In this document: in pieces, positions 1-53,170 of the stretch | Layout: each line of letters opens with the position of its first letter | How positions within the stretch are numbered: position 1 is the first letter of the stretch | Assembly (NCBI GenBank): GCA_963750465.1 | Contig: CAVVRE010000007.1 | Coordinates: 21,818 to 85,817 of the forward strand | Source of the DNA: an uncultured Acidimicrobiaceae bacterium | Lineage (GTDB): Bacteria > Actinomycetota > Acidimicrobiia > Acidimicrobiales > Palsa-688 | Length of the DNA stretch: 64,000 nt | Reading direction: 5' to 3' | Notes under the pieces: model-generated | The model's input: the letters and a program-made list of their open reading frames with translations, nothing else | The model's database searches: none | Told to the model about the DNA's origin: nothing | Position numbers and translations under genes: made by a program

Positions 1-2140
1 GCGCGTCACCACCAAAAGCAGCGGGCCGCTCGAGGCCAGCGACGCCAGTTCCGCCGTCAAGCGGAGCGAAGTTGGGTCGGACCAGTGCAGGTCCTCCAGG
101 GCGAGCACAGTCGGGCCGTGGGAGACGAGCTTGGCCAGCAGCGAGCGCACCGCCGCGAACGTGACGTGCTGCAGCTCCGCTGGGCCCATCCGGCCCAGAT
201 GGGCCCCGTCCGGCCCTGGTGGCATCCCCATCATGTGGGCCAGCACGGGCAGGAGGTCGCTGTACTTGCCTAAGACAGCGCGCACGGCCGATCCGAGGGC
301 GGGGCGCAGCACCGCCTCCCCGGCCTCCAGGGGTGCCCCGATGAAGCGACACAGGAGCTGCTGATAGGCCCCGTACGGGGTAGAGGAGGCGTAGGACGCA
401 CATCGGCCCTCCAGCCACAGCGGCAGCCGCCCCGACGCCGCCCCCACCCAGCCCATGAAGAACTTTCGGCACTCGCCGACGAGGCGCGTCTTGCCGATCC
501 CGGGCTCACCTGTTAGGACGACCGCCCCGCCTTTGCCGGCCACGGCTTCGCGAACGGCTTCCGTGAGCACCGCTCGCTCGGCGTGACGCCCGACCAGGGT
601 GGCCCGCGCCGCCAGACGACGACGGCCGGCTTCGGCTTCTGATCGTGGCTTCGCTCCCACGAGGTAACTCCCGCTTAGCGGGTGAGCGCCGGAGGACATG
701 CCTATGTCCTGGCTCGGCCCCCAGTCGAAGATCTCTTCGGCCGCGGCACGCGTGGATGGGCCGACGAGCACGGTGCCGGGCTTAGCGGCTGATTGCAGCG
801 CAGCGGCAGCGCCGACCACCTCGCCTATCGCCCCGTACCGCACCTGGTCACCGTCACCCATCGGCCCCACTACCGCCGTCCCGGACTCGACCCCAATGCG
901 TACGGAAAGGACCGCCATTGGGGGGCCCGCTTGCTCTGGGCGTCCGCCGATAAAGGCGTTGCCACGAGCCACCGGTCGGCCCACCGCAGCCGCGATGCGC
1001 AACGAGGCGCGGCAGGGCCCGCTCTGGGTCATCCTCGTGGGCCAGCGGGGCGCCAAAGAGCACCAACATGCCGAAGCCGGAGATCGATGCCACCGTGCCG
1101 CCGAACGCCTCCACCTCGGTCATCGTTTGAGCCAGGCCGGCACTGATCAGCTCCCGGAGGTCTTCTGGGTCGGCCTGGCCGCCGAGACCCGGCGGGGCGA
1201 GATCGACAAAAACAACGCTCACCAGCCGGCGTTCCTCCCCCTGTCGAACGGCGGCGACGCCTGGCCTAACCGGCGAGGTCTGTTCCCTAAGCCCCGGCAT
1301 TCGGCCGTCCGCGTTGGCCCGCACTTCCTCGAGGGCCGGCGAGGTCTTTATGCCCAGGTTGGCGAGCGCGGCGCTGCAGCGTTCATAAACTGCAACGGCC
1401 AGGGGGCGACGGCCTTGAGCGACGTACAACTGCATGAGCGCGGCGGCCGCCTCCTCGTCGGTTTGGTCCGCCTCCAGGCACGCCTGCCAGGCCTGAAGGA
1501 CCTCTTCGGGGTGAGCGCGCCCAATACCGCGGGAGCGGTCGCGGGCCAGCTCCAAGCGAGCCTCTTGGCGGAGGTACTCGACCCGTTCCCCTACCCGGGC
1601 CGCCCAATCAGCCTCGGGCTCGTCTTCGAGCGGGGCCCCGCCTGTTGACAGGACCTCGACGAGAGCAGCGTCTCGTGCCTGGCCCGGCAGAACCTGCAGC
1701 GCGGCCCGAAGCGCCCGCTCGTGGACGTCGAGGTCCACAATTAGCGAGACGGCCGGGTCGGCCCAAATTTGGCTCCGGTCGGCACGGAGCAAGCCAGCTG
1801 CCTCCGGCCCCAGCTGTTTCAGCGCCGTTCGTGCCATCGATTGGGCCTTGTAAAGCGAATGTGCGGCCGCCTCGAGCGAAAGCGACGGGAACAGCGCCTC
1901 GCACGCCGCCTCCCGGCTGATCCTGCGCCCGGGGCTAACCAGAACGAGCTGGCACAGGCGCCGGGCGCTTGGGCGCGGCCATGAGCCAACGCTGCGGCCT
2001 CCAGCGGTCACGATGAACCGCCCGAGCAGCCTGACGTCGATGACCGGGGGACGGCTGCCATGTGCGGGCTCCGGAACCACGTTGACCATTCTCTCAGGCA
2101 CCCGCGGCGCGGGGGTGCTCCGGGCAGCTTTTACGCCCAT
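1..2140 (-). CDS. Large multidomain regulator running off the left edge. Domain order is N-terminal SARP module (OmpR-type winged helix + BTAD), class III adenylyl/guanylyl cyclase catalytic domain, then AAA/NB-ARC-like ATPase (Walker A GEPGIGKTRL). It is interrupted by an apparent 1-nt frameshift near position 1000, and the start is uncertain (TTG 2209, ATG 2140 or ATG 2089)
   Basis: The minus ORF 854..2209 contains 'IDVRLLGRF...GRSVGSWPRPSARRL...' (SARP DNA-binding) and BTAD-like helices. Cyclase motifs follow: 'RRLVSVVFVDL...GFGMLVLFGAPLAHEDDPERAL'. After a shift, hand translation of the minus strand at 480-1000 gives 'LRIAAAVGRPVARGNAFIGG...RIGVESGTAVVG...RYGAIGEVVGAAAALQSAAKPGTVLVGPSTR' (cyclase C-lobe). 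That frame continues into 'LVGRHAERAVLTEAVREAVAGKGGAVVLTGEPGIGKTRL' (ATPase). Confidence 0.6.
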
Positions 2141-2141
2141 C

Positions 2142-2486
2142 TCAAACGTAGAGCGCCGCGCCGCCGGCCTGGAGGCCACTAAGACGAGACGACCAAGCAT
2201 TCGGGGCAATTTGCTTTACCCGAGCCGGAGCCGCAGGGCTGTCGTAGAACGGTAAGCCGTAAGAGGGAGTGACGCCGTCGAAGAGCGCGGCGCCTCCGGA
2301 CGGCAGCCCACTGAGACGAGTTGACCATGCATTAGGGGCGGTTCCTGTGGCACCGCTCCGGGTCCCGGCGTCAATGTGTGCTGCCGGCTTTTGTGCCGCC
2401 GAGGCACCTGCGCTCAACGTCGCGATGGAGATAAGTGCGACGACCGCCGTGCTGGCAACCCTGGCAGCGAGTTTCTTCGTGTTCAT
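2142..2486 (-). CDS. Small secreted protein (signal peptide) with an internal duplicated ~19-aa motif APNAWS(T/S)RLSGL..GGAAL
   Basis: ORF 114 aa. N-terminus 'MNTKKLAARVASTAVVALISIATLSAGASA' looks like a signal peptide. AAGGAG RBS sits 5 nt upstream of the ATG. Two near-identical repeats occur at residues ~50-68 and ~94-112. Confidence 0.6.
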   Translation of the reverse strand: MNTKKLAARVASTAVVALISIATLSAGASAAQKPAAHIDAGTRSGATGTAPNAWSTRLSGLPSGGAALFDGVTPSYGLPFYDSPAAPARVKQIAPNAWSSRLSGLQAGGAALYV

Positions 2487-2688
2487 GTCGGCTCCTTTGG
2501 TTGGCTATGCGTTGTTGCATTGATGGCCATGTTGAAGGAGCCGTTTTCCCAAAACTTCCCCATGGCATTGGTGGTCGCCCGAACGACTGGGCCCGTCAGG
2601 AACCCGACCTGTGTTCTCGAGGATCGCCGGTTCCAAAGCATCGACAGCAGACCGCCGGTGTAGTGTGGCGACGCGTCAGAGCGCAGAG

Positions 2689-3216
2689 CTAGCCTGACGG
2701 TGTTGCCGGCCACGCCCAGGCACCGGGCGACGGCGTTGATGCCCATATGCTCGGCTTCGTCGCAGCCTGCAGCGGATCTCGGCCCAGCCCTCCACGTTTA
2801 TCACCTTTCTGTCCCCCTGGTCGGCACACGACCAGGGGGATTGGCCACCGAACCTGCACTTGTGGACCTGACACGGGGTCAAATCTCGGTTGTCGGTAGG
2901 GGACGCTTCTACGTCGTGTCAAGCCGTTGCGGACTGCCTCGAGCTTCCTGAACAAGTGGCGTGCGACATAGCGTTTTAGGCAGCTCTTTTGATGTCTTGC
3001 CCTCAGCGGTCTGCCGGGACACGTAGGCCTTGGTCCGAGCGTAGAGGCGCGGCGAACGAGGACAATGATGTACAACGCCCGGGTTAGCTGGCGGTCGCCG
3101 GTGCGGTTCAGCCGGCGACGGACCGTCTCCACGCTGGAGGTCTCTGGGGGGCCACTCCGGCCAGTTTGGCGAAGGGTGCCTCCGAACGGGCCCCTGCCCC
3201 TGTGGGCGAGCCTCAC
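2689..3216 (-). pseudogene. IS110-family transposase remnant. Only the C-terminal Transposase_20-like part is present, followed by read-through
   Basis: 'RRRLNRTGDRQLTRALYIIVLVRRAS...RARHQKSCLKRYVARHLF' aligns with the IS110/IS116/IS902 C-terminal motif (GKRR.SKRGN.RLRRALY..A...R....RARGKPKKVALVAVARKLL). No DEDD N-terminal domain is present. The adjacent 3240-3540 segment is low-GC. Confidence 0.45.
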
Positions 3217-3546
3217 CCGGAGGCGCCGCCACGACGCCTAGCTACCTGACGCTGAACCAATAGGGACCCAAGAGGGCTGCAGCACCTTAGGCTCCCAGAT
3301 CTGGTTTTTATGCACGCTGGGTCTGACTGGCAAAGACCGCGACTTGACAAGTTCATAATCGTTATGCGTGCTCACTGGCCATTTCCAAGCCCTACATAAT
3401 CTCGGATATTACCTCCCACAAAAGCCAATGTCAGCTAGTGCGTGAAACACACGGCAAGCCTCGGCTATTCTTCTGCAATTGGGCAATCATTTCCAGAGAG
3501 GCTACTTATAATCGCGCCAAGCTCCAACCCACAGCGCGCGTCGGTG

Positions 3547-3952
3547 ACGACCAAACTACGCGACACCTCCGGAGCTCGCTGCCCGGAAGGCGTCGGCCAC
3601 GAAGAAACGGCTAACCACCCGTATTGCCGCGGCGCGTTTGTTCTCCGGGGCCGTGGCCCGGCTTGCCGAGGCCAAAGCCGCCTGGGAGCGCGCCCAAGCC
3701 GAAACTCAGCGCGTCCAGGCCGAGGCGGCAGAGGACCTCCTCCGCTCCGGCCGGCAGCCTGACGAGGTGGCCAAGCTGCTCGGCATCTCAGTAAGACGGA
3801 CTGCTCTCCAAGGCCAACGCCAGCGCGGCCGACAGGGCCCTGACTCGGCTGGCGGCAGCGCAGACGAGCTCGACCAGGTCACACCCTGTGCGCCTGTACT
3901 CAGAGCGTTCGCGAGCGGTGAGCCGGCCTCTCTCCCGACCCTTGCTTGCTAG
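3547..3952 (+). CDS. Small hypothetical protein with a putative HTH ('EVAKLLGISVRRT'). Possible recombination-directionality or regulatory protein of the islet, with TTG/alternative start
   Basis: Open frame after TGA at 3544-3546. Helix-turn-helix-like segment present. It sits between the IS remnant and the integrase. Confidence 0.3.
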
Positions 3953-4066
3953 GAGCCATAGGTCACGTCGGCGCCCAGCGCTTTGGTGTGATTGAGCGTG
4001 CGCGTGGCCTGGCGCGCTCGAGGCTCGTCGAACACCGAATACGGGCCGCTGCGATTGTGGACACCC

Positions 4067-5316
4067 TTACTGCGGACTGGCCGTCGGCAGTGCAAACCGG
4101 GTGCCAAGCAGCTCGGCTGCGGCACGGTCGCGCTCCTGAACCGCGTGGGCGTACACGCGGAGGGTGACAGACGGATCAGCGTGCCCGAGCCGACTGGCAA
4201 CTGTCCGCGCGTCCACACCGCCACCGATCAGTTCCGTCGCCGATAAGTGCCTCAAGTCATGGAACCGGAACGGCCAGGGCTGGCCCGTCTCCCGCTCCAG
4301 GGTGTCGCATAGGTGTGCGAACGCTCGCGTGATGCTGTCTGGCGTTCGTGGCGCCAATCCTTCCACGCTTGTCGCCCACACGTAGGCGCCATCACCGACG
4401 GCCACCCCAGCCATCCTGGCATCAGTGTCGGCACGCTGGCGTCTGGCGGCGAGCAGCCCGATGCATGCCGCGTCGAGCGCGATCGTGCGCACCCGGTGCG
4501 TCTTTGTGTCCTTGACGCCAGTTTCGGATCGGACTTCCCATACAGACCGGCGGAAGGTGAGCTTCTGGCGCGCCCAATCGATATCTCCCCATTGCACGCC
4601 GCAGAGCTCACCACGCCGGCAGCCCGTCATGATCGCGAAGAGGACGATCGATCCAAGGTCGGGTGAGGCCCCTTGCTCAGCGCGCAGTACGAGAGTTTCT
4701 GTTTGCTCAATGCTTGGCACGTGAAGTTCGGGCGGCGCGGGCGTAGTGACCGTCGCGTTGAGTGCGACGTTTCGGTCGACCCACTCCCACTTCTTAGCCT
4801 GGTTCAGCGCAGCGCGTAATACCCGGTGGTGGTGGACCACGCCCGCTTGACTCATGCCCTCGGCGCGCCAGTGAGCGTAGAGCTGGTCCACGTCGCGCGC
4901 ACCAAGAGCCGACAGGGCCACGTTGCCGATTGCAGCCTTGAAGCGCTCAGCGCGGATGCTGTAACCGTGCCGGGTCGTTTGGGCCGGCCGACCGACTCGC
5001 AATGCGCCAGCCATTCGTCCAGCACTTCCCCAACCGTCCTGGTGTCCGGTTGGGGCTCAGGGTCGAGCGCTGGCTCGGCTTTGGCATCGCGGGAATAGAC
5101 GTACCGGCCAGCCTCAACGTCGGCAACGAGCGCGGCCAGCGCTGCGCGGGCGGCCCGGATGCTGGCGCCACGTTCCGCACGGGGCGCCACGAACGTTCGC
5201 ACGGCCTGCCGCTGAGTCGCCTTGTCGTAGTATCGGAGCTCGTAATGACTTGCCGAACGCTCCCTTGTCGATCCGGGGCCCTTCTTCCGGTTGCGGCCCA
5301 GCGGTGGCGTGGCTAC
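4067..5316 (-). CDS. int: Tyrosine-type site-specific recombinase / phage integrase, with an apparent frameshift at ~4985 inside a GGCCGGCC repeat. The exact start is unresolved
   Basis: C-terminal catalytic region 'HDLRHLSATELIGGGVDARTVASRLGHADPSVTLRVYAH' (R..H-R-Y). The N-terminal arm/SAM-like region 'GRNRKKGPGSTRERSASHYELRYYDKATQRQAVRTF...TVGEVLDEWLAH' lies in the other frame (ORF 4852..5460). The two frames join at 'ESVGRP/AQTTRHGYSIRAERF'. Confidence 0.7.
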
Positions 5317-5408
5317 CTCGTCGCGGCTGCGAGTGCTCCGTGGAGAGCTGGCGAAAGGGCCAAGGTTGGCGGCTTTCAGGAGGGTAACCGAGGGCAAAAC
5401 CCCAGCTA

Positions 5409-5494
5409 GGGCGCGTGGTGGAATGGCAGACACGATGGACTCAAAATCCATTGGCCGCAAGGCCGTGAGGGTTCAAGTCCCTCCGCGCCCACCC
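5409..5494 (+). tRNA. tRNA-Leu (anticodon CAA), class II with long variable arm
   Basis: Hand-folded. 7-bp acceptor stem GGGCGCG/CGCGCCC, 3-bp D stem GTG/CAC, anticodon stem ATGGA/TCCAT with loop CT-CAA-AA, variable stem-loop GGCC-GCAA-GGCC, T stem GAGGG/CCCTC with loop TTCAAGT, discriminator A. CCA is not fully encoded (ACCC). Confidence 0.85.
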
Positions 5495-5939
5495 TGTGTT
5501 GATCACAAAGTGCCTGGTCAGGAACTTGCTCGGATAAAGCACCAGTAGGACGTTCGGGGCTCCTGCCGGAGGTCGCACGTGACCTATCAGCCCCAATCAG
5601 GCACCGAGCCGCCCAGGGTCTGGTTGGCGACCCCGTAAAGGCCGGGCGGCGAATGGGAAGAACGGTCCGGTCCAGCCCCTCTGACATGTGGGAAGCTCCC
5701 TTTAGGCGATGATGGCTGCCGAAATGGTAACCGCCGGCCGCGCCCGTCGCCGCCTGGGATAGGTCGCGTCCCGCGGAGTGGTCGGCTTCGAGCGGTACGA
5801 TAAAGCTGGCGCGTGGGGCGCCGCCTGGTCCGCGGAAAGGGCTGAGCCCACCCGATAGAACAGCAGGCCTGTGCGTACAGTTCCTGGCCTCCTTTCGACC
5901 GGCATCGCGGACCGGCCGGTAGAGCGAAAGGAGTTCGCG

Positions 5940-7449
5940 ATGGCGACGGCGTCGCTGCCCCAAGACCCTGATCTCGACCAGCTCCGCAAGCAGGCCCGCG
6001 AGTTACAGCGCGCCGTCCGAAGCGGCGAGGCGGCCGCGCTGGCCCGGGTATCTAGATGGCACCCCGGAACGCCGGCCCCCAGTGCATTCCCGTTGACGGC
6101 CGCCCAGTTGGTCTTGGCACGCGAGCACGGCTTCGCCAGCTGGGCCCGCATGCGCCGGTACGTCCAGGTCGTAACGGCCCGCGCCTGGCCCCTGGACAGC
6201 CGGCACCGGAGCATGAAGCGCCGGCCGACCGGTTCCTTCGACTGGCGTGCCTGACTTACAGCGACGACGGACCTGCCAACCGTGCGGCCGCCGCCCAGCT
6301 CCTAGCCGAGCAGCCCGAGCTGCCCCGGCACAACCTGTTCGTGGCGGCGGCGTGCGCCGAGATGCCCGAGGTGCGCCGTCACCTCGCCGGGCGACAGGCC
6401 GCGGCGAGTGTTACCGGCGGACCACACGGTTGGTCGCCATTGCTGTACCAGGCCTACGCCCGCCACAACCCGGACGTCGACCTGGCGGCCACGCTGGAGA
6501 CGGCCCAGCTGCTGCTCGACGCCGGGGCCGACCCCAACGACGGCCGCTTCTGGCACGCTCTGCCCACCCCGTTCACGGCGCTCACGGGGGTGCTCGGCTA
6601 CGGCGAACACCGCCAACCCTGGCATCCGCACGCCATACCTTTCGCCCGGCTGCTATTGGAGTCGGGCGCCGACCCCAACGATGGCCAGGCCCTGTACAAC
6701 CGCATGTTCGGCACCAATGACGACCACCTGGAACTGCTCTTCGAGTACGGCCTTGGCCGTGACACCCGTGGCCCCTGGCACCGGCTGCTCGGCGAGTCCC
6801 TGGAGTCGCCCGCCGAAATGTTGCGGAGCCTGCTGGCCTGGGCGGTCACTCACGATCAGCGCCACCGCGTCGCCTTGCTCGCCGAGCACGGTGTCGACAT
6901 CATGAGCCCGTTCACCGAGCCACGCAGCCCTCGGCGGGGCACGCCGGTCGAAGTCGCACTGGTCAACGGCCACCGCGAGCTCGCCGACCAACTCCGCGCC
7001 CTCGGCTCCCCCCGCCCCGGCTAGGGGCGGCCGACACCTTCGTCGCCTCCGTCCTCGCCGGCGACACCGACGCAGTTCAGCAAACGCCCGCCAATGTAGT
7101 CGGCGCGGTGCGGCACAAGCGGAGCGGGCTGGTCACCTGGGCCGCGGCCCAAGGTGCACCCAACGCGGTCGAGCTGCTCGTCTCGGCCGGTTTCGACGTC
7201 AACGCACTCGGTCGCAGCGACATCCCGAGCAACGAGCCGTGGCACACGGCCCTACATGTCGCCGCCGAGACCGGCAACCTCGCCCTCGCCCAGACGTTGC
7301 TCGCACTGGGAGCCGACCCGGACATCCCCGACAAGCACTACCGGTCCACCCCCCTCGGCTGGCGCCGGTACTTCGGCCAGCCTGCGTTGGTCGAACTGCT
7401 TGAGCCGCTTGCACCGACACCTTGCACCCTCGTCCCCCTTCGAGAGTGA
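5940..7449 (+). CDS. Ankyrin-repeat protein, with two apparent frameshifts at ~6200 and ~7015. The second lies in a C6/C4 homopolymer run
   Basis: ATG at 5940 is preceded by GAAAGGAG. N-terminus 'DLDQLRKQARELQRAVRSGEAAALARV...LTAAQLVLAREHGFASWARMRRYV'. Repeats include 'LLLDAGADPNDG' and 'LLLESGADPNDG'. The third-frame piece 'FVASVLAGDTDAVQQ...HTALHVAAETGNLALAQTLLALGADPDIPD' ends with TGA at 7447-7449. Confidence 0.65.
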
Positions 7450-7795
7450 CGTTCCGGCTTATGCTCCGGCCGACGAGGCCAGCCGTGATCACGAGGGCAC
7501 CTTTGTGCCGTACCCGCACTGTCTCGCTGGATCGTCGAGCAGGCGATTTGGCCCCGTGCCCTTGGAGTCGCGTGCTCTCCGGGTGAACCGCACCGGTGGA
7601 GAGAAGCGGGGATTCTGGTAGGAGCAATCCGCTGTCGCGTCGAAAGACGTACACGCCGGGACAGACAGGGAGAGGCGAATCAGATCCCCGGTTCAATAGA
7701 TCGGACGTCGCGGCCGACGCTCTGCCCTCTTCGAGCCCGCCATCGGCCACGGGAACACGGTTGAAGTAGCCCAACCCTCTCGGGCCAGACACCGA

Positions 7796-7826
7796 CAGAT
7801 TATCCCGGTAAAGCCTGGATAATCTG
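7796..7826. promoter_or_regulatory. Perfect 10-bp inverted repeat CAGATTATCC-N11-GGATAATCTG. It is AT-rich in a GC-rich background, ~310 bp upstream of the DinB_2 gene. Candidate operator or protein-binding site
   Basis: Seen directly: 7796-7805 and 7817-7826 are exact reverse complements. The surrounding 7450-8134 region has no convincing ORF. Confidence 0.4.
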
Positions 7827-8137
7827 GCTCCTAATTGTATATCAGCCATTGTGACCAAGAAGGGGCAGCGGTGGGGCGCGGCAGCAGGTCTGTCGAGGAC
7901 GCGTGTTATGGGCAGCACCCCCGGACGGCTTCGTCCACGGCCGCTCCTTAGGCGGGGTCCGCCGAGGTACTGGTCCGCCGTGGGCGTTAAATGTGGGACA
8001 GTTCTCGAGGTTGCCGTCTCTGAAGCAAGACGAGGGTTGGTGGAACTGCCGAACCGCGACGAGCCCGCTGGCCGAGTTGAGGGCCGCTAGCTCCTATAAA
8101 AGGCCAAAGAAGCAGGGTTCCGTGCCATGATCAGGTG

Positions 8138-8650
8138 ATGACCGAAGCACCCGATGACGAGAAGCAAACGCTGATGCGCTTCCTCGAATACCAGCGCGCC
8201 TCAGTTCTTTCCATAGTTGGGCAGCTTGACGAGGAGGCGTGGCACACCTCTGTGGTCCCTTCGGGCTGGACCCCAGCCGGCCTTGTCCAGCACCTGGGCG
8301 ATGCGGAGCGGCACTGGTTCCAGCAGGTCGTGGCCGGGTCGGGCGTCGAGCTGCCATGGGATGAAGGACGGCCGCCGTACGACCCAAACGCCGCGTTTAC
8401 CTGCGACCGGCCGGCAGAGGAAGTCGTCGCCTACTACTGCGACCAGTGCCGGCGCTCCGATGAGGTACTGGCCGTAACGCCGTTATCGGCGCCGCCCGTG
8501 GGCCGGCATGGCGACCCGGACTTAGAGGAGGAGATCACGTCGTTGCGCTGGGTCGTGCTGCACATGATCGAGGAGACGGCGGCTCACTCGGGCCATCTGG
8601 AGATCGCTCGTGAACTGCTCGACGGCCGGACCAAGCTGGGTCTGCGGTAG
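8138..8650 (+). CDS. DinB_2 / DUF664-family protein (DinB/YfiT-like metal-dependent hydrolase fold)
   Basis: 'LEYQRASVLSIVGQLDEEAWH...LVQHLGDAERHWF...LRWVVLHMIEETAAHSGHLEIARELLDG' matches the DUF664 signature. Confidence 0.7.
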   Translation: MTEAPDDEKQTLMRFLEYQRASVLSIVGQLDEEAWHTSVVPSGWTPAGLVQHLGDAERHWFQQVVAGSGVELPWDEGRPPYDPNAAFTCDRPAEEVVAYYCDQCRRSDEVLAVTPLSAPPVGRHGDPDLEEEITSLRWVVLHMIEETAAHSGHLEIARELLDGRTKLGLR

Positions 8651-8674
8651 CCGGCTCGTTACTATGCCTCACGC

Positions 8675-9652
8675 ATGAAGGTTCTGGTTACGGGGAGCGC
8701 CGGGCATCTTGGAGAAGCGCTTGTGCGGTCGTTGTCCGCGGACGGCCACGATGTCGTCGGGCTCGACCTCTTGAGCTCGCCTCAGATCCCTTCAGCTGGC
8801 TCGATCGTCGACCGTGATCTGGTCCGGCGCTGCACTCGAGGAGTGGACGCCGTGTTCCACACCGCTACCCTTCACAAACCCCATGTTGGTAGCCACGACC
8901 GGCAGTCGTTCGTCGATACGAACATCTCTGGAACGCTGAACCTGCTGGAGGCAGCAGTCGAATTCGAGGTGACCGCCTTCGTGTTCACCAGCAGCACGAC
9001 CACCTTCGGTCGTGCCCTTACGCCAGGTCCGGACGCACCGGCGGCTTGGATTACGGAGGATGTACAGCCCGTCCCGAAAAATATATACGGCGCCACAAAG
9101 ACCGCCGCCGAAGACCTGTGCCAGCTTTTGCAGCGGGACTCTGGCCTACCGTGTGTCGTCCTCCGGGTCTCTCGCTTCTTTCCGGAAGCCGACGACCGAG
9201 ACGAAGTCCGGGCCGCTTACGACGACCAAAACCTGAAGGTCAACGAACTGTTGTACCGGCGCGTCGATCTCCAAGACGTCGTGACCGCCCACCGCCTGGC
9301 CCTCGAAAAGGCTCCCGCGCTGGGCTTCGGCCGTTACATCATCAGTGCTACCACTCCATTCGCCCAAGACGACATGGCGGGCCTCGCCGCCGACGCGCCC
9401 AGCGTCGTGCGACGGCTCTACCCGGACTACGAAGAGATCTACGCCCGCCGAGGCTGGAAAATGCTACCGAGCCTCGACCGCGTGTACGTCAACAGCCGGG
9501 CGCGACGCGAGCTCGGGTGGGAGCCGCGATACGACTTCCGCCACGCGCTCCACTGCCTGCGATCTGGGCAGGATCCGCGCAGCCCGCTGAGTCTGGCGAT
9601 CGGCGCCAAGGGTTATCACTCCCGGCCGACGGGCGTATATACGCCAGAATGA
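8675..9652 (+). CDS. NAD(P)-dependent epimerase/dehydratase (SDR extended family)
   Basis: 'MKVLVTGSAGHLGEALV' Rossmann motif and a YxxxK-type region. Confidence 0.8.
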   Translation: MKVLVTGSAGHLGEALVRSLSADGHDVVGLDLLSSPQIPSAGSIVDRDLVRRCTRGVDAVFHTATLHKPHVGSHDRQSFVDTNISGTLNLLEAAVEFEVTAFVFTSSTTTFGRALTPGPDAPAAWITEDVQPVPKNIYGATKTAAEDLCQLLQRDSGLPCVVLRVSRFFPEADDRDEVRAAYDDQNLKVNELLYRRVDLQDVVTAHRLALEKAPALGFGRYIISATTPFAQDDMAGLAADAPSVVRRLYPDYEEIYARRGWKMLPSLDRVYVNSRARRELGWEPRYDFRHALHCLRSGQDPRSPLSLAIGAKGYHSRPTGVYTPE

Positions 9653-9769
9653 GATCTGCGAGCGCCGGGGCCCTTATTCGACGGCCGTTACGGAGCCAAA
9701 AAGCAAATAGAAGAGACGCCCGCCAACCTCTCGCCGCAGGGCCCCCGACGAAGGCCGGGCACGGCCGGA

Positions 9770-10983
9770 CTACCCGGGCACCTCTAATTGCGCCCACGGG
9801 GAGCTGTAGCCCCCGGCCAGGAGGTCGAGGAACGGCCTCGAGTCAAAGGCTTCCGGCCCAAGCACGCCACTCCCCGTCCACGACCCGTTGTCGATCAACT
9901 CGAATGCGACGACAGGATTGACCGCCGTCTGCCACACCACCGCCTGCGATCCGTACTCGCGCATGGACCACTCGTTGTCGACTACGTGGTAAAGGTACGT
10001 GGACCGGGGCTGGCCGTCCTTGCCCGTCCCTCGGCCCAAAGCCCAGCACACGTTTTTCCTGTCATACGGTCGCCGAGCGTGGCCGGGTCGGGCAGGGCCG
10101 CCGCCACCACATCGCGCGGGCTGACCTCGACCTCGCCGACCCGCACCCTGTCGGTACGGTCCAGGCCGAGCTTGTGCAGCACCTTCAGGACGTCAATGAA
10201 GTCTTGGCCCAATCCGTATTTGAACGTCACCCGCTTGACGTCCAACCACCGGGGAATTAGAAGGACCTCTTCATGCTCGACGTTGACGCACTCGATTGGG
10301 CCGATACCGTCAGGGAAATCGAAGGTCTCGGGTTCGCTGAACGGTTCGGTCGTGTACCAGCCCCGCTCCTTCTCGTAGATCACTGGGGGGTTGAGGCATT
10401 CCTCGATCGTCGCCCAGATCGAAAACGTCGGGGCGAATTCATAACCCTCGACCACCAGGTTGGCGCCATCTCGCACGGCGGCGTCGTCGAGCTCGCTGAA
10501 GAGGTAATCGGCGGCGTAGCGGGCGAAAACGTCGGCCAGGCCAGGTTCGACCCCCATGCCCACCAAAGCAATACGTCCGCTGTCCACCCAGTCGTCGCTC
10601 AACGCGAACTGGTCGTCACCCAGCTTCACCCCGGTCTGGGAGTAAGGATCGGTTGGGTGCGGCTTCGACATGGACATGGCCATGTCCATGTAGTGCACTC
10701 GGCTTTCGAGCGCGGCCCGGAATATCGGCATGGTGAAACGGGGATCGGTGGCCCCGAGCACACCATCTATGCGGTACTCAGTGATAAAGGCGACAAGACC
10801 AGCCTGATCGGAGGCGTCCAGCTGGGCGGCGACGAACCTCTTGTCGTCGACCGCCTGAACGGCCTTCTCCGCTCGCGACAATGAGTAATCCGCCACTACC
10901 ACCTGGGAGGGAAAGTCCCGACGGGCGGCGATCCGAGCTGCGGCGCTGCCGACGCCGCCGGCCCCGACTATGAGAATGCGCAT
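9770..10983 (-). CDS. Saccharopine dehydrogenase-family NAD(P)-binding oxidoreductase, with an apparent frameshift at ~10035
   Basis: N-terminus 'MRILIVGAGGVGSAAARIAA'. The C-terminal Sacchrp_dh_C-like region 'STYLYHVVDNEWSMREYGSQAVVWQTAVNPVVAFELI...GVLGPEAFD' lies in the other frame (ORF 9770..10051). Confidence 0.7.
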
Positions 10984-11277
10984 TAAGCGAAACCATACTC
11001 CGCGCTGGACTACCCGCTGGACTACTCACCGTGCTCCCCACCGCTTTCCCGTCGGCGCGGCTACGAGCTGCAGCCGATGACGTTTGGCACTCACCGGTTC
11101 GGGGACGTTCACGGCCCTCATTATGCCTATCGGGCCGCCGCCCTGACCGCGCTGGGCCGCCGACCGGAGGGCCACGGGCGCATGGCGGCCATATTCGCGA
11201 CCTGGGTCCAAAAACGTGGCCCGGTAGGCATGTAATGCGACCTAAGTCGGCGCAGCGGGCGGCGCCAGCCGGGTCGA

Positions 11278-11345
11278 CCGGGTTCAAATGGGCTCAAAGT
11301 GGGCTCCGCCGCGCTCAAACCGGGCTCAAACCGGGCTCAAAAGAG
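11278..11345. repeat. Degenerate ~10-11-bp tandem repeat (CCGGGCTCAAA-like, ~6 copies) inside a 900-bp non-coding gap (10984-11888)
   Basis: 'gggttcaaat gggctcaaagt gggctccgcc gcgctcaaa ccgggctcaaa ccgggctcaaa' read directly. Confidence 0.6.
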
Positions 11346-11888
11346 CCGAGAAGCCAGGTACGCCGTGTCTGGCAGCGGCCCCGGTTGGGCCGGCGGCCCA
11401 TCACCGTGCTGGTCCAGTACAGGTCCCCATGTTCAGATCGACGCGGGACGTCCCCTCACACCCCGGGCGTCAATGGGACCGGCCCCCGAGGCGAGCTCGT
11501 CGGGAGGCGGGATCGAGCGCAGGTACCCGGAGACCAGCGCGATGCCCGTCCTCGCCAGGGCGGCGGATTGTGCGGGCCCATCCGCCCTGGACGCCATGGC
11601 CAAGGCCCTGCCTGGGAGAACTAGGGCGGCCGACGACCAGAACGTGGCGCGCTGCCCAGCGAAGATGGTGTCCGGCCCTCGTTCCAGTCGGAGCGCCCGA
11701 TTCCCTTGTTAGAAAAAGCTGCCGCGGGTGTCGATATCGAGGGGGCCCCAATCGTCGTCATGACAGAGGTGCCCGGGACTGGTCGAAAGGAGACCGCGGA
11801 CCGCCATGGAACGGAGCCAGCGGCCGCATCCCTCCTCAAGCTGTCCGGGCTCCTCTTTTGATGGCACCATTAGACGAGGAGGAAACCA

Positions 11889-12236
11889 ATGCGGTACTTG
11901 CTCATGATCTGCGAGGACGAGAAGTGGCTGGACGGTTTGAGCCCCGAAGAAGGAGGGTCGATCCTGGCCGAGTATGGCACTTTCTGGAAGGAGATGGCCG
12001 AGCGCGGCGTACTGGAAGGCGGCGAGCGGCTTCGGCCCACAAGCGATTCGACGTCCGTGAGGGTCCGCGACGGCGAGGTCCTGACTTTCGACGGGCCGTT
12101 CGCTGAGACCAAAGAACAGGTGGGCGGTTACTTCGTCGTTGACTGCAAAGACCTCGACGAGGCGATTGAGGTGGCGGCCAAGATCCCCGGGTCGCGTTCC
12201 GGCACCATCGAAGTGAGGCCGATCTGGCCGATGTAA
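11889..12236 (+). CDS. YCII-related / DGPF-domain protein
   Basis: '[11 protein letters not shown]...[33 protein letters not shown]' is the canonical YCII/DGPF signature. RBS GGAGGA lies upstream. Confidence 0.8.
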
Positions 12237-33852: not shown

Positions 33853-34731
33853 ATGGTCCAGGAGAGCCCGGCCCGGCATCCGTGGGTGCTCGGGGCGCGC
33901 CCGCGGACGCTGCCGGCCTCTGTCGTACCGGTCCTCGTGGGTACGGGCGCAGCGGCCGCCTACGGCGCCGCCATATGGTGGCGGGCGCTCCTGGCCGGGG
34001 TCGTCGCCCTCTCGCTCCAGATCGGCGTGAACTACGCCAACGATTACAGCGACGGCGTGAGGGGCACCGACGCCGCCCGCGTCGGCCCGGTCAGGCTCGT
34101 GGCGGGAGGTTTGGCATCCCCGGGGGCGGTCAAACGGGCCGCCCTGGCGGCGTTCGGCGTCGCCGGCGCGGCCGGCCTCGTCCTGGCCGCGGTGGCCGGG
34201 TGGTGGCTGGTGGCGCTGGGCGCGGTATGCGTCATCGCGGCCTGGTCCTATACCGGGGGACCACGCCCGTACGGCTACGTGGGCCTGGGTGAGGTCTCGG
34301 TGTTCGTGTTCTTCGGGCTGGTCGCGACCACCGGCACTGCCTACGTCCAGACCGACATGCTGACGTCGCTCGAGGTCCTGGCCGCCGTACCGGTCGGGCT
34401 CATAGCGGTGGCCTTGCTCGTGGTCAACAACCTGCGCGACATCCCCGGGGACACCGCTGCGGGCAAACGCACCCTGGCCGTACGCATCGGCCCGGCGGCG
34501 ACGCGGCGCCTGTACGAGGCGTGTGTGCTGCTCGCCGTCCTGCTCGTCGTGCCCATAGCGTTCATCCGCCCGTGGGCCCTTCTGGGCCTGGCCGCCTTCC
34601 CGGTCGCCATCGCTCCGGTGCGGGCTGTCGCCTCGGGGGCGGAGGGGCGGGCGCTGATCCCGGTCCTCGGGGCCACTGGGCGGGCGCAGCTCGTGCTGGG
34701 CGTACTACTCGCCATCGGCCTGGCCCTCTGA
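33853..34731 (+). CDS. menA: 1,4-dihydroxy-2-naphthoate polyprenyltransferase
   Basis: UbiA-family membrane protein 'NYANDYSDGVRGTD...VVNNLRDIPGD'. ATG at 33853. Confidence 0.85.
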   Translation: MVQESPARHPWVLGARPRTLPASVVPVLVGTGAAAAYGAAIWWRALLAGVVALSLQIGVNYANDYSDGVRGTDAARVGPVRLVAGGLASPGAVKRAALAAFGVAGAAGLVLAAVAGWWLVALGAVCVIAAWSYTGGPRPYGYVGLGEVSVFVFFGLVATTGTAYVQTDMLTSLEVLAAVPVGLIAVALLVVNNLRDIPGDTAAGKRTLAVRIGPAATRRLYEACVLLAVLLVVPIAFIRPWALLGLAAFPVAIAPVRAVASGAEGRALIPVLGATGRAQLVLGVLLAIGLAL

Positions 34732-52383: not shown

Positions 52384-53170
52384 TTGATGGAAACACAGGA
52401 GGCGGCCCCTCCAAGTGATGAATTGTGGGCCGAGTACAAACGGACCGGATCCAGGGAACTGCGGGACAAGCTGATCGTGCGGTACTCGCCGCTCGTCAAG
52501 TACGTCGCCGGCCGCGTTTCAGTCGGCCTGCCGCACACGATCGAGCAGGCTGACCTCGTCAGCTACGGCATCTTCGGGTTGATCGACGCCATCGAGAAGT
52601 TCGACCATCAGCGGGCCATCAAGTTCGAGACGTACGCCATTACCCGGGTCAAGGGGGCCATAATCGACGAACTGCGCAGCATCGACTGGGTCCCGCGGTC
52701 CATCCGGGCCAAGGCCAGAGCGATCGAGAAGGCTTACGCCAAGCTCGAGGCCGAAAACCTGCGGACGCCAAATGATGCGGAGGTGGCGCGCGAGCTCGGG
52801 CTCACGGAGGACGAGCTGCAGACGCAGTTCTCCCAGAATCTCGTTTGTGGGCATCGTGGCTCTGGACGAGGTGCTATCCGGCGGGGACCGCGGGGAGTCG
52901 ACCACGTTGGGCGACACTCTGGCCGACCGCCGTGAAGGCCCCATGCAGGCATTCGAGGTCGAGGAGATGAAGCAGATCCTGGCGGGAGCCATCAACCGGC
53001 TCGGTGACCGGGAGAAGATCGTCCTCACCCTCTACTACTACGAGAGCCTCACGCTGGCCGAGATCGGTCAGGTCCTCGGCGTGACCGAGAGCCGGGTGTG
53101 CCAAATCCACACGAAGGCGGTGCTGCAACTTAGAGGCCGGATGCTGGTGGCCGACAAAGAGTCGGCGTAG
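52384..53170 (+). CDS. whiG: FliA/WhiG-family RNA polymerase sigma factor, with an apparent frameshift at ~52850
   Basis: Regions 2-3 '[15 protein letters not shown]...[18 protein letters not shown]'. Region 4 '[33 protein letters not shown]' lies in the second frame (52772..53170). Confidence 0.75.

Follow-up and report, generated by a model that had tools for sequence, protein, structure and literature searches.

A predicted SARP-type transcription activator with a retained pseudo-cyclase domain in uncultured Acidimicrobiaceae

The window analyzed here is a stretch of 64,000 nucleotides from an uncultured Acidimicrobiaceae bacterium (assembly GCA_963750465.1, contig CAVVRE010000007.1, positions 21,818 to 85,817 of the forward strand), and the 5' part of a large regulatory gene lies on the minus strand at its left edge. 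This gene probably encodes a one-gene transcription activator of the SARP-LAL type, in which an N-terminal SARP module, consisting of a winged helix-turn-helix (wHTH) and a BTAD domain, is followed by a retained pseudo-cyclase domain, a STAND-like NTPase and TPR repeats; the frameshift that interrupts it is most likely an assembly error. A first-pass annotation, made from the DNA letters alone, had described one protein with this order of domains and a single frame break. That observation was confirmed by our analysis. The accompanying interpretation was supported in part, the exceptions being the synthesis of cyclic nucleotide monophosphates (cNMPs), the assignment of the ATPase to NB-ARC and the novelty of the architecture.

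Domain architecture of the regulator

The gene exits the window at its left edge, and the window contains the 5' 713 codons of a total of approximately 1369. A search for orthologues with the same domain order, as the first-pass annotation had proposed, identified the intact protein P0123 (1369 aa, 97% identical, locus L025 10001-14110) and many full-length relatives. When the frame-corrected translation was searched against Pfam, which had also been proposed, matches were obtained for BTAD (29.8 bits; cut-off 22.1), Guanylate_cyc (23.3 bits; cut-off 21.9; second half of the domain only) and AAA_16 (E=2.5e-23), while the anticipated Trans_reg_C and NB-ARC domains were not matched. Together with the structural comparisons described below, these matches reproduced the order wHTH, BTAD, cyclase homology domain (CHD) and P-loop ATPase that had been read by eye.

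BTAD was detected in 31 of 40 family members and Trans_reg_C in none of the 40. Because Trans_reg_C finds no sequence match, the DNA-binding domain rests on predicted structure. The AlphaFold model of residues 18-317 (pLDDT 87.9) shows an OmpR-type beta-sheet, three helices and a beta-hairpin, all with pLDDT >90, followed by a helical bundle. Foldseek returned six PDB matches at E<=1e-3, all of which were either EmbR (2fez, 2ff4) or the SARP domain of AfsR (8k60, 8hvr); their E values ranged from 3e-8 to 5e-7, and the approximately 265 aligned columns spanned both the wHTH and the BTAD. A PDB sequence search with the 40-sequence family profile matched no SARP structures. The model supports a predicted OmpR-type winged-helix DNA-binding domain at residues 33-135.

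The lysine of the Walker A motif was kept in 109 of 112 aligned family members. NB-ARC was matched neither by the corrected protein nor by the 40 family members or P0123, and weak matches were seen to NACHT in 9 of the 40 members and to BrxC and TPR_MalT in some. Judged from its sequence, the ATPase is of the AAA_16 type (LAL/MalT-like, STAND-like) and not NB-ARC, so that the P-loop part of the earlier label, AAA/NB-ARC, holds and its second part does not. The TPR repeats that had been expected beyond the window were found there, as TPR_12 matched residues 1259-1323 of P0123 and TPR matches occurred in other members too. No GerE/LuxR helix-turn-helix (HTH) match was obtained in full-length P0123.

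The cyclase homology domain lacks catalytic residues

Residues 299-467 of P0123 matched the structure of the Cya2 cyclase (2w01) with E=2.4e-11. The 40-sequence family profile matched the same structure with E=3.3e-21, and its next matches were CyaC, CyaB, soluble AC10 and many others. By comparison with solved structures, the homology of this region to cyclases is secure at the sequence level and both halves of the domain are present, consistent with the two cyclase lobes that the first-pass annotation had recognized. A reading of the cyclase as part of a Pycsar defence system was rejected: the PADLOC match covered just 38 residues (E=0.0027).

Six key positions were placed by HMMER alignments to Cya2 and CyaC and by a MAFFT alignment with canonical relatives. 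This mapping is based on the established class III spacing, K-x-x-G-D and D/T-x6-N-x3-R, with D396/D440 and K938/D1018/N1025/R1029 of mammalian adenylyl cyclase as the reference residues. The first metal-binding aspartate is kept in the window protein (D313). The substrate-specifying Lys/Glu, located four residues before the second metal-binding aspartate, is lost (S352), as are the second metal-binding aspartate itself (F356), the transition-state asparagine (G443) and the transition-state arginine (A447). The second specificity position is occupied by G436, at a site that varies among active cyclases (S, A, G).

Similar losses were found throughout the family. Among 130 members with a full CHD, none has the second metal-binding aspartate, which is replaced by A, G, F, S, T or R, and none has the transition-state arginine (A in 112); the transition-state asparagine is present in one. 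The position of the substrate lysine is occupied by S in 117 members and by A in 13, and the first metal site is acidic in 125 (E in 113, D in 12). Columns that are at least 90% conserved make up 28% of the CHD, as compared to 30-33% of the wHTH, BTAD and AAA_16 domains and 0-7% of the two linkers; therefore, the domain is not decaying. Because the second Asp, Lys/Glu, Asn and Arg are all replaced, the coupling of cNMP synthesis to promoter binding that the first-pass annotation had suggested is not supported. The residue losses contradict it, and the CHD appears to be a catalytically dead pseudo-cyclase.

Class III cyclase domains function as head-to-tail dimers, and for this reason the most likely role of the CHD is that of a dimerizing or regulatory adaptor. 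In this role it would make no cNMP and would lie between the SARP module and the NTPase, where it might pair or orient two SARP modules or relay the state of the NTPase to them. Alternatively, the degenerate CHD might act as a receiver, with ATP, a cNMP or some other small molecule bound in a remnant pocket and the SARP module gated allosterically as a result. Consistent with this idea, which was also proposed for the Mclx2/3 proteins (PMC4452763), the CHD is conserved as strongly as the other folded domains, and the residues now found at its key positions show conservation of their own, with S/A in place of the Lys, A in place of the Arg and E/D at metal site 1. However, the position of the second metal-binding aspartate is highly variable, which argues against a precisely conserved pocket, and we consider a receiver function rather doubtful. 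If this doubtful possibility were nonetheless true, the family would constitute a class of its own, made up of multi-copy SARP activators that respond to second messengers or metabolites. Such a class, with its 2-4 or more paralogues per genome, would be expanded in uncultured Acidimicrobiaceae and would have arisen repeatedly (Paraburkholderia), and in it SARP promoter activation would be tied to nucleotide signalling via reception and not synthesis.

A far less probable proposal is that the protein contains an active class III adenylyl/guanylyl cyclase within a SARP-STAND protein and so couples cNMP synthesis to promoter binding. The CHD is genuinely homologous to active cyclases, it retains the first acidic metal-binding residue, and SARP-less relatives of its CHD-AAA_16-TPR cassette keep the full catalytic set. 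Against this, four key residues are replaced in the window protein, and two of them, the second aspartate and the arginine, are missing from every family member with a full CHD. In addition, both halves of the active site are defective, and therefore the canonical site would be rebuilt neither by homodimerization nor by pairing with a similar paralogue, and catalysis would not be rescued.

The reading frame and the insertion at position 1013

The coding sequence on the minus strand from 2140 to 1 is one reading frame, broken once by an extra base at 1013, in agreement with the single continuous protein, apart from one shift near position 1000, that the first-pass annotation had described. In the six-frame translation of window 1-2400, the minus-strand open reading frame (ORF) 854..2209 translates as ...FGAPLAHEDDPERAL, and a second minus-strand frame resumes with RASLRIAAAVG and is stop-free to window base 1. 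The likely start is ATG 2140 (MGVKAAR), with ATG 2089 (MVNVV) as an alternative. tblastn of P0123 was collinear with the window, with residues 1-376 mapping to 2140..1013 and residues 377-713 to 1011..1, and near position 1000 the low-GC codon position shifted from phase 1 to 2. When one base was removed, the window part contained 713 codons and 0 stops. The repaired junction that had been proposed, HEDDPERAL followed by RASLRIAAAVG, is exactly as read in intact P0123 (...HEDDPERALRASLRIAAAVG...), and the N-terminal ORF, P0014, belongs to the same 90% cluster as P0123. The extra C to which the defect had been attributed was also found, as a plus-strand C at 1013, where L024 and L025 read CCCTCCGCG on the minus strand; removal of the adjacent C at 1012 yields an identical protein.

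For comparison we used the copies of the regulator gene at loci L001, L024 and L025, along with P0126, a cluster mate that is the downstream ORF of the window genome and continues the regulator protein. The relatives belong to uncultured Acidimicrobiaceae and derive from long-read metagenome-assembled genomes of the MFD series. Over window 1-12137, L025 is collinear and 98.8% identical. The ratio of non-synonymous to synonymous substitution rates (dN/dS) between the window and L025 was 0.20 over 713 codons, and the intact orthologue P0123 was shown to be under purifying selection.

We conclude that the frameshift at 1013 is most likely an artefact of long-read metagenome assembly and not the lesion of a pseudogene, because single-base indels at a density of about 1 per 1.5 kb also break unrelated genes and because near-identical assemblies break the regulator at differing positions. 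Relative to L025, 12.1 kb of the window contain 8 single-base indels, the others being located at 10035, 7014, 6189, 5751, 5634, 4986 and 3264. The indel at 10035 shortens a saccharopine dehydrogenase (9982..10983) to 333 aa, compared with 404 in L025; those at 7014 and 6189 break an ankyrin-repeat protein (6056..7024; 322 aa vs. 503), and that at 4986 breaks an integrase of the tyrosine recombinase type (4067..5014; 315 aa vs. 461), all three genes being intact in L025. The regulator of L024 has an insertion at gene nucleotide 1096 and a deletion at 1212, and that of L001 has insertions at 846 and 951.

Were the frameshift real, the gene would be a pseudogene in this genome, or would yield two products, a 411-aa protein made of the SARP and half of the CHD, and an ATPase-TPR protein apart from it. 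Two observations favor this and count against an assembly error: the extra base is also present in a second, independent assembly, L001, where it lies outside any homopolymer, and P0126 is frame-garbled in at least three further stretches relative to P0123, which would fit a decaying pseudogene too. The base shared with L001 may reflect either a consensus error that depends on sequence context or an indel that truly recurs. On the other hand, L024 has the local single-nucleotide polymorphism alleles of the window yet lacks the insertion and is broken elsewhere. The background of indels in unrelated genes and in a sigma factor, the dN/dS value and the stop-free corrected frame also speak against a real lesion, which we regard as unlikely. 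Programmed +1/-1 ribosomal frameshifting, for which the overlap of the two frames within a continuous coding sequence is the sole support, has practically no probability, as intact P0123 is in frame without any shift, which effectively refutes it, the site CCCTGCCGCG has no slippery heptamer and the other assemblies are broken at other places.

The sigma factor is a sigma-70 gene on the plus strand, split at approximately 52.8 kb into overlapping ORFs in different frames (52384..52935, regions 2-3; 52772..53170, region 4), and this split is probably another frameshift artefact. It was reached through one of the two calls of a whole-window scan for frame switches based on GC content at the third and second codon positions; the other call was merely an ATGA stop-start overlap, and the scan was too insensitive, overlooking the known shift at 1013. 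The window assembly appears to be rich in indel errors, with genes frequently split by single-base indels.

Two side observations concern the integrity of other sequences. At L026, L027 and L028, which are other family loci from the same ENA assembly series, the TPR part at the C-terminus was called as a separate overlapping or abutting ORF (11318..11974, 11132..11989 and 11189..12022, respectively), which looks like the result of frameshift errors splitting long genes. ARAGORN reported a 100-nt 'tRNA-???' at 34075..34174 (+) with a four-base anticodon, ttgg, which may be a tRNA with an indel-damaged anticodon loop.

Proposed mode of action

AfsR, SARP-LAL regulators and other STAND proteins suggest a mechanism by analogy. 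In this proposal, the TPR region would sense a ligand or a partner, and the NTPase would then switch between ADP- and ATP-bound states and drive oligomerization. Oligomerization might in turn allow the N-terminal SARP modules to bind repeated promoter elements and to recruit RNA polymerase, with the pseudo-cyclase placed between the two as described above.

Several points weigh against this proposal. DNA binding, ATP dependence and the role of the CHD in this family are what we infer, and the sequence model for the wHTH, Trans_reg_C, had no matches. The acidic first metal position makes some nucleotide or metal binding by the CHD possible. SARP-type heptamer repeats with a spacing of 11 nt were absent from window 2100-5600, the vicinity of the gene to which the scan was confined. 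Finally, three other family loci shared neither conserved neighbor genes nor a biosynthetic cluster, so that no target could be inferred from them.

Family spread and literature

The window protein is an ordinary member of a large uncharacterized family related to SARP-LAL and Mclx-type regulators. A word-indexed protein search gave 1195 matches. Among the best 120 of these, full-length relatives from Acidimicrobiales, Trebonia and Streptosporangiaceae dominated, and most of the 120 covered at least 95% of the query with BTAD, Guanylate_cyc and AAA_16. In an exhaustive search of 50%-identity representatives with the SARP and the first half of the CHD, 121 matched at E<=1e-30, approximately 25 of them right through into the CHD. 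The family is often present in several copies: MFD04463.bin.2.226 has four loci, and at each of L025, L024, L001 and L027 another copy is located no more than about 10 kb away.

The first-pass annotation had not recognized this architecture. It is common in public protein sets, where some JGI product names read 'DNA-binding SARP family transcriptional activator/class 3 adenylate cyclase', an automatic annotation of the fusion, and it also occurs in Paraburkholderia; it is, however, undescribed, in that the searchable literature yielded no paper describing a SARP plus cyclase architecture and none mentioning BTAD together with Guanylate_cyc. In one apparent literature match, 'SARP' was an unrelated acronym. 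In the same searchable literature, SARPs are divided into no classes other than small, medium, large AfsR-like and SARP-LAL (PMC10972967; PMC12224297; bioRxiv 10.64898/2026.09.02.748808).

Genomic neighborhood of the regulator

The coordinates of the regulator, its domains and the region downstream of it are listed in Table 1.

Table 1. Features of the regulator gene and of its downstream region. Positions refer to the window unless a locus is given.
Feature	Position	Strand	Basis or remark
SARP, pseudo-cyclase, AAA_16, TPR regulator, 5' part	1..2140	-	translations, tblastn of P0123, continuation in P0126
Predicted OmpR-type wHTH DNA-binding domain, residues 33-135	1736..2044	-	AlphaFold model and Foldseek
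BTAD helical (TPR-like) domain, residues 136-277	1310..1735	-	Pfam BTAD; co-aligned with wHTH on EmbR/AfsR
Variable disordered linker between BTAD and CHD, residues 278-298	1247..1309	-	pLDDT <50; 0/21 columns conserved in family
Degenerate class III CHD, residues 299-486; contains the frameshift	682..1246	-	match to PDB 2w01
Single extra base (minus-strand G in CCCT[G]CCGCG)	1013..1013	-	absent from L024/L025, present in L001
AAA_16 P-loop NTPase, residues 515-713 within the window	1..597	-	Pfam AAA_16
Walker A, GEPGIGKT	487..510	-	corrected translation
Walker B, LALEDLHW	82..105	-	corrected translation
HisKA_3/GerE pair, second paralogue, Peptidase_A4 region	L025 14658..22265; L024 6423..14045; L001 13557.. 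and 21278..		downstream of regulator

Upstream of the regulator, a gene at 2142..2486 (-) has a good ribosome-binding site (AAGGAG) and encodes a protein of 114 aa in which a signal peptide and two copies of APNAWS(T/S)RLSGL..GGAAL(F/Y) are present. A single nucleotide separates the stop of this gene from the ATG of the regulator at 2140, suggesting that the two genes are co-transcribed. The 114-aa protein is 100% identical in L025 and had no Pfam match. A homologue with one repeat precedes a paralogous regulator at L020, and unrelated 238-aa secreted proteins precede those at L008 and L011.

Downstream of the regulator and beyond the window are genes for a HisKA_3 histidine kinase and a GerE-type response regulator. 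This two-component pair is followed by a second, convergently oriented paralogue of the regulator (1311 aa in L025) and then by a Peptidase_A4 gene.

Within the window, the gene for the tyrosine recombinase (-) adjoins tRNA-Leu(CAA) at 5409..5493 (+), the two spanning 4067..5493. L001, which is 99.2% identical, diverges from the window about 40 nt past the 3' end of the tRNA, where insertion sequence (IS) transposases are found, and L025 stays collinear, which suggests a variable insertion at tRNA-Leu in L001. That the regulator itself is carried on an island integrated at tRNA-Leu was not established: the integrase is located 5' of the tRNA, and the flank beyond it is also present in L025. 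An IS110-like remnant suspected by eye at 2689..3232 had no Pfam match.

Comparison with known systems

Large SARPs are now sorted into AfsR-like proteins (NB-ARC plus TPR) and SARP-LAL proteins, and this locus documents a third, conserved and widespread arrangement that has gone undescribed, namely a SARP-LAL-type protein that keeps the CHD of CHD-ATPase-TPR ancestors minus its catalytic residues. It offers a clear case of a pseudo-enzyme domain kept under constraint inside a STAND-like switch, and it cautions that such proteins should not be annotated as adenylate cyclases.

The SARP-LAL regulators of Streptomyces (PimR, SanG, PolR, FilR/PteR) resemble the window protein in having an N-terminal SARP (wHTH plus BTAD) and an AAA_16-type P-loop ATPase with no LuxR HTH, and their ATPase is homologous to those of the LAL and 'guanylate cyclase' families (PMC3367932, PMC10972967, PMC12224297). 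PimR binds heptameric direct repeats and was described as lacking a cyclase signature (PMC3367932), which sets it apart from the window protein; the latter is longer by about 300 aa and contains, between its BTAD and its ATPase, an additional CHD of approximately 190 residues. Unlike the SARP-LAL regulators, the window gene, its orthologous loci and three other family loci had no biosynthetic gene cluster in their surroundings. The closest relatives without a CHD (P0175, P0176, P0183, P0200) are proteins of approximately 1000 aa with the order BTAD-AAA_16-TPR, which is the SARP-LAL layout; in these, the BTAD ends near residue 250 and the AAA_16 begins near residue 270, leaving a gap of about 20 residues.

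AfsR-type large SARPs share with the window protein the N-terminal SARP fold (8k60/8hvr, TM score 0.72 normalized to target), a central STAND-type NTPase and C-terminal TPRs, and AfsR operates as an NLR-type switch (bioRxiv 10.64898/2026.09.02.748808). The NTPase of the window protein is of the AAA_16 type instead of NB-ARC, however, and AfsR has no CHD.

The mycobacterial Mclx proteins (Rv0386, Rv1358, Rv2488c), which consist of a CHD, an AAA/NB-ARC ATPase and a LuxR HTH, also combine a CHD-ATPase cassette with a DNA-binding domain, but in these the latter is a C-terminal LuxR HTH, whereas the window protein has an N-terminal SARP module. Rv0386 is an active cyclase, in contrast to the window CHD, which is without four of the six key residues. 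Mclx2/3 of M. tuberculosis are CHD-ATPase-LuxR proteins in which some canonical cyclase residues are gone, and they were proposed to be nucleotide-modulated regulators and not enzymes (PMC4452763). Among regulators of the CHD-ATPase-HTH type, they provide the closest precedent for a degenerate CHD.

The CHD-AAA_16-TPR cassette also occurs without a SARP. tblastn against plasmids located it in hundreds of replicons of rhizobia and Burkholderiales, with an identity of about 30% over query residues ~290-1000, and the proteins, if annotated, are called 'adenylate/guanylate cyclase domain-containing protein'. The motif FGAPVAHE(E/D)DPERALRA is common to these rhizobial and proteobacterial proteins and the window protein, and the cassettes of S. 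meliloti pA (zinc ribbon N-terminus) and Microvirga (SAM domain) keep all of the catalytic residues (D, K, D, N, R). The TOMM kinase/cyclase fusion family TIGR03903 matched the window protein in part, over the CHD-ATPase region only (E=2.3e-33); membership was rejected at 115 bits against an NCBIfam cut-off of 705.75 bits. Both groups have other N-terminal modules (zinc ribbon, SAM, kinase) in place of the SARP.

A protein with the full order was found in a cultured proteobacterium. The RefSeq megaplasmid PPGU19_p2 of Paraburkholderia sp. PGU19 (NZ_AP023182.1; L029 1468-5418) encodes a protein of 1316 aa, unannotated in PLSDB, with Trans_reg_C (25.5 bits, just under the cut-off), BTAD, Guanylate_cyc, AAA_16 and TPR in the order of the window protein. 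The two proteins are only 26.5% identical, and the CHD of the PGU19 protein is partly degenerate: it keeps the second metal-binding aspartate and the arginine and has lost the first aspartate, the lysine and the asparagine. This points to more than one occurrence of the fusion or of cyclase decay.

Because the SARP-less cassettes stay catalytic and the CHD-less SARP relatives have the layout of SARP-LAL proteins, the best description of the window protein is that of a fusion between a SARP and a cyclase-ATPase-TPR cassette in which the cyclase has turned into a pseudo-enzyme. As such, it connects the SARP-LAL regulators of Streptomyces, the Mclx proteins of mycobacteria and the cyclase-ATPases of rhizobia as parts of a single modular series.

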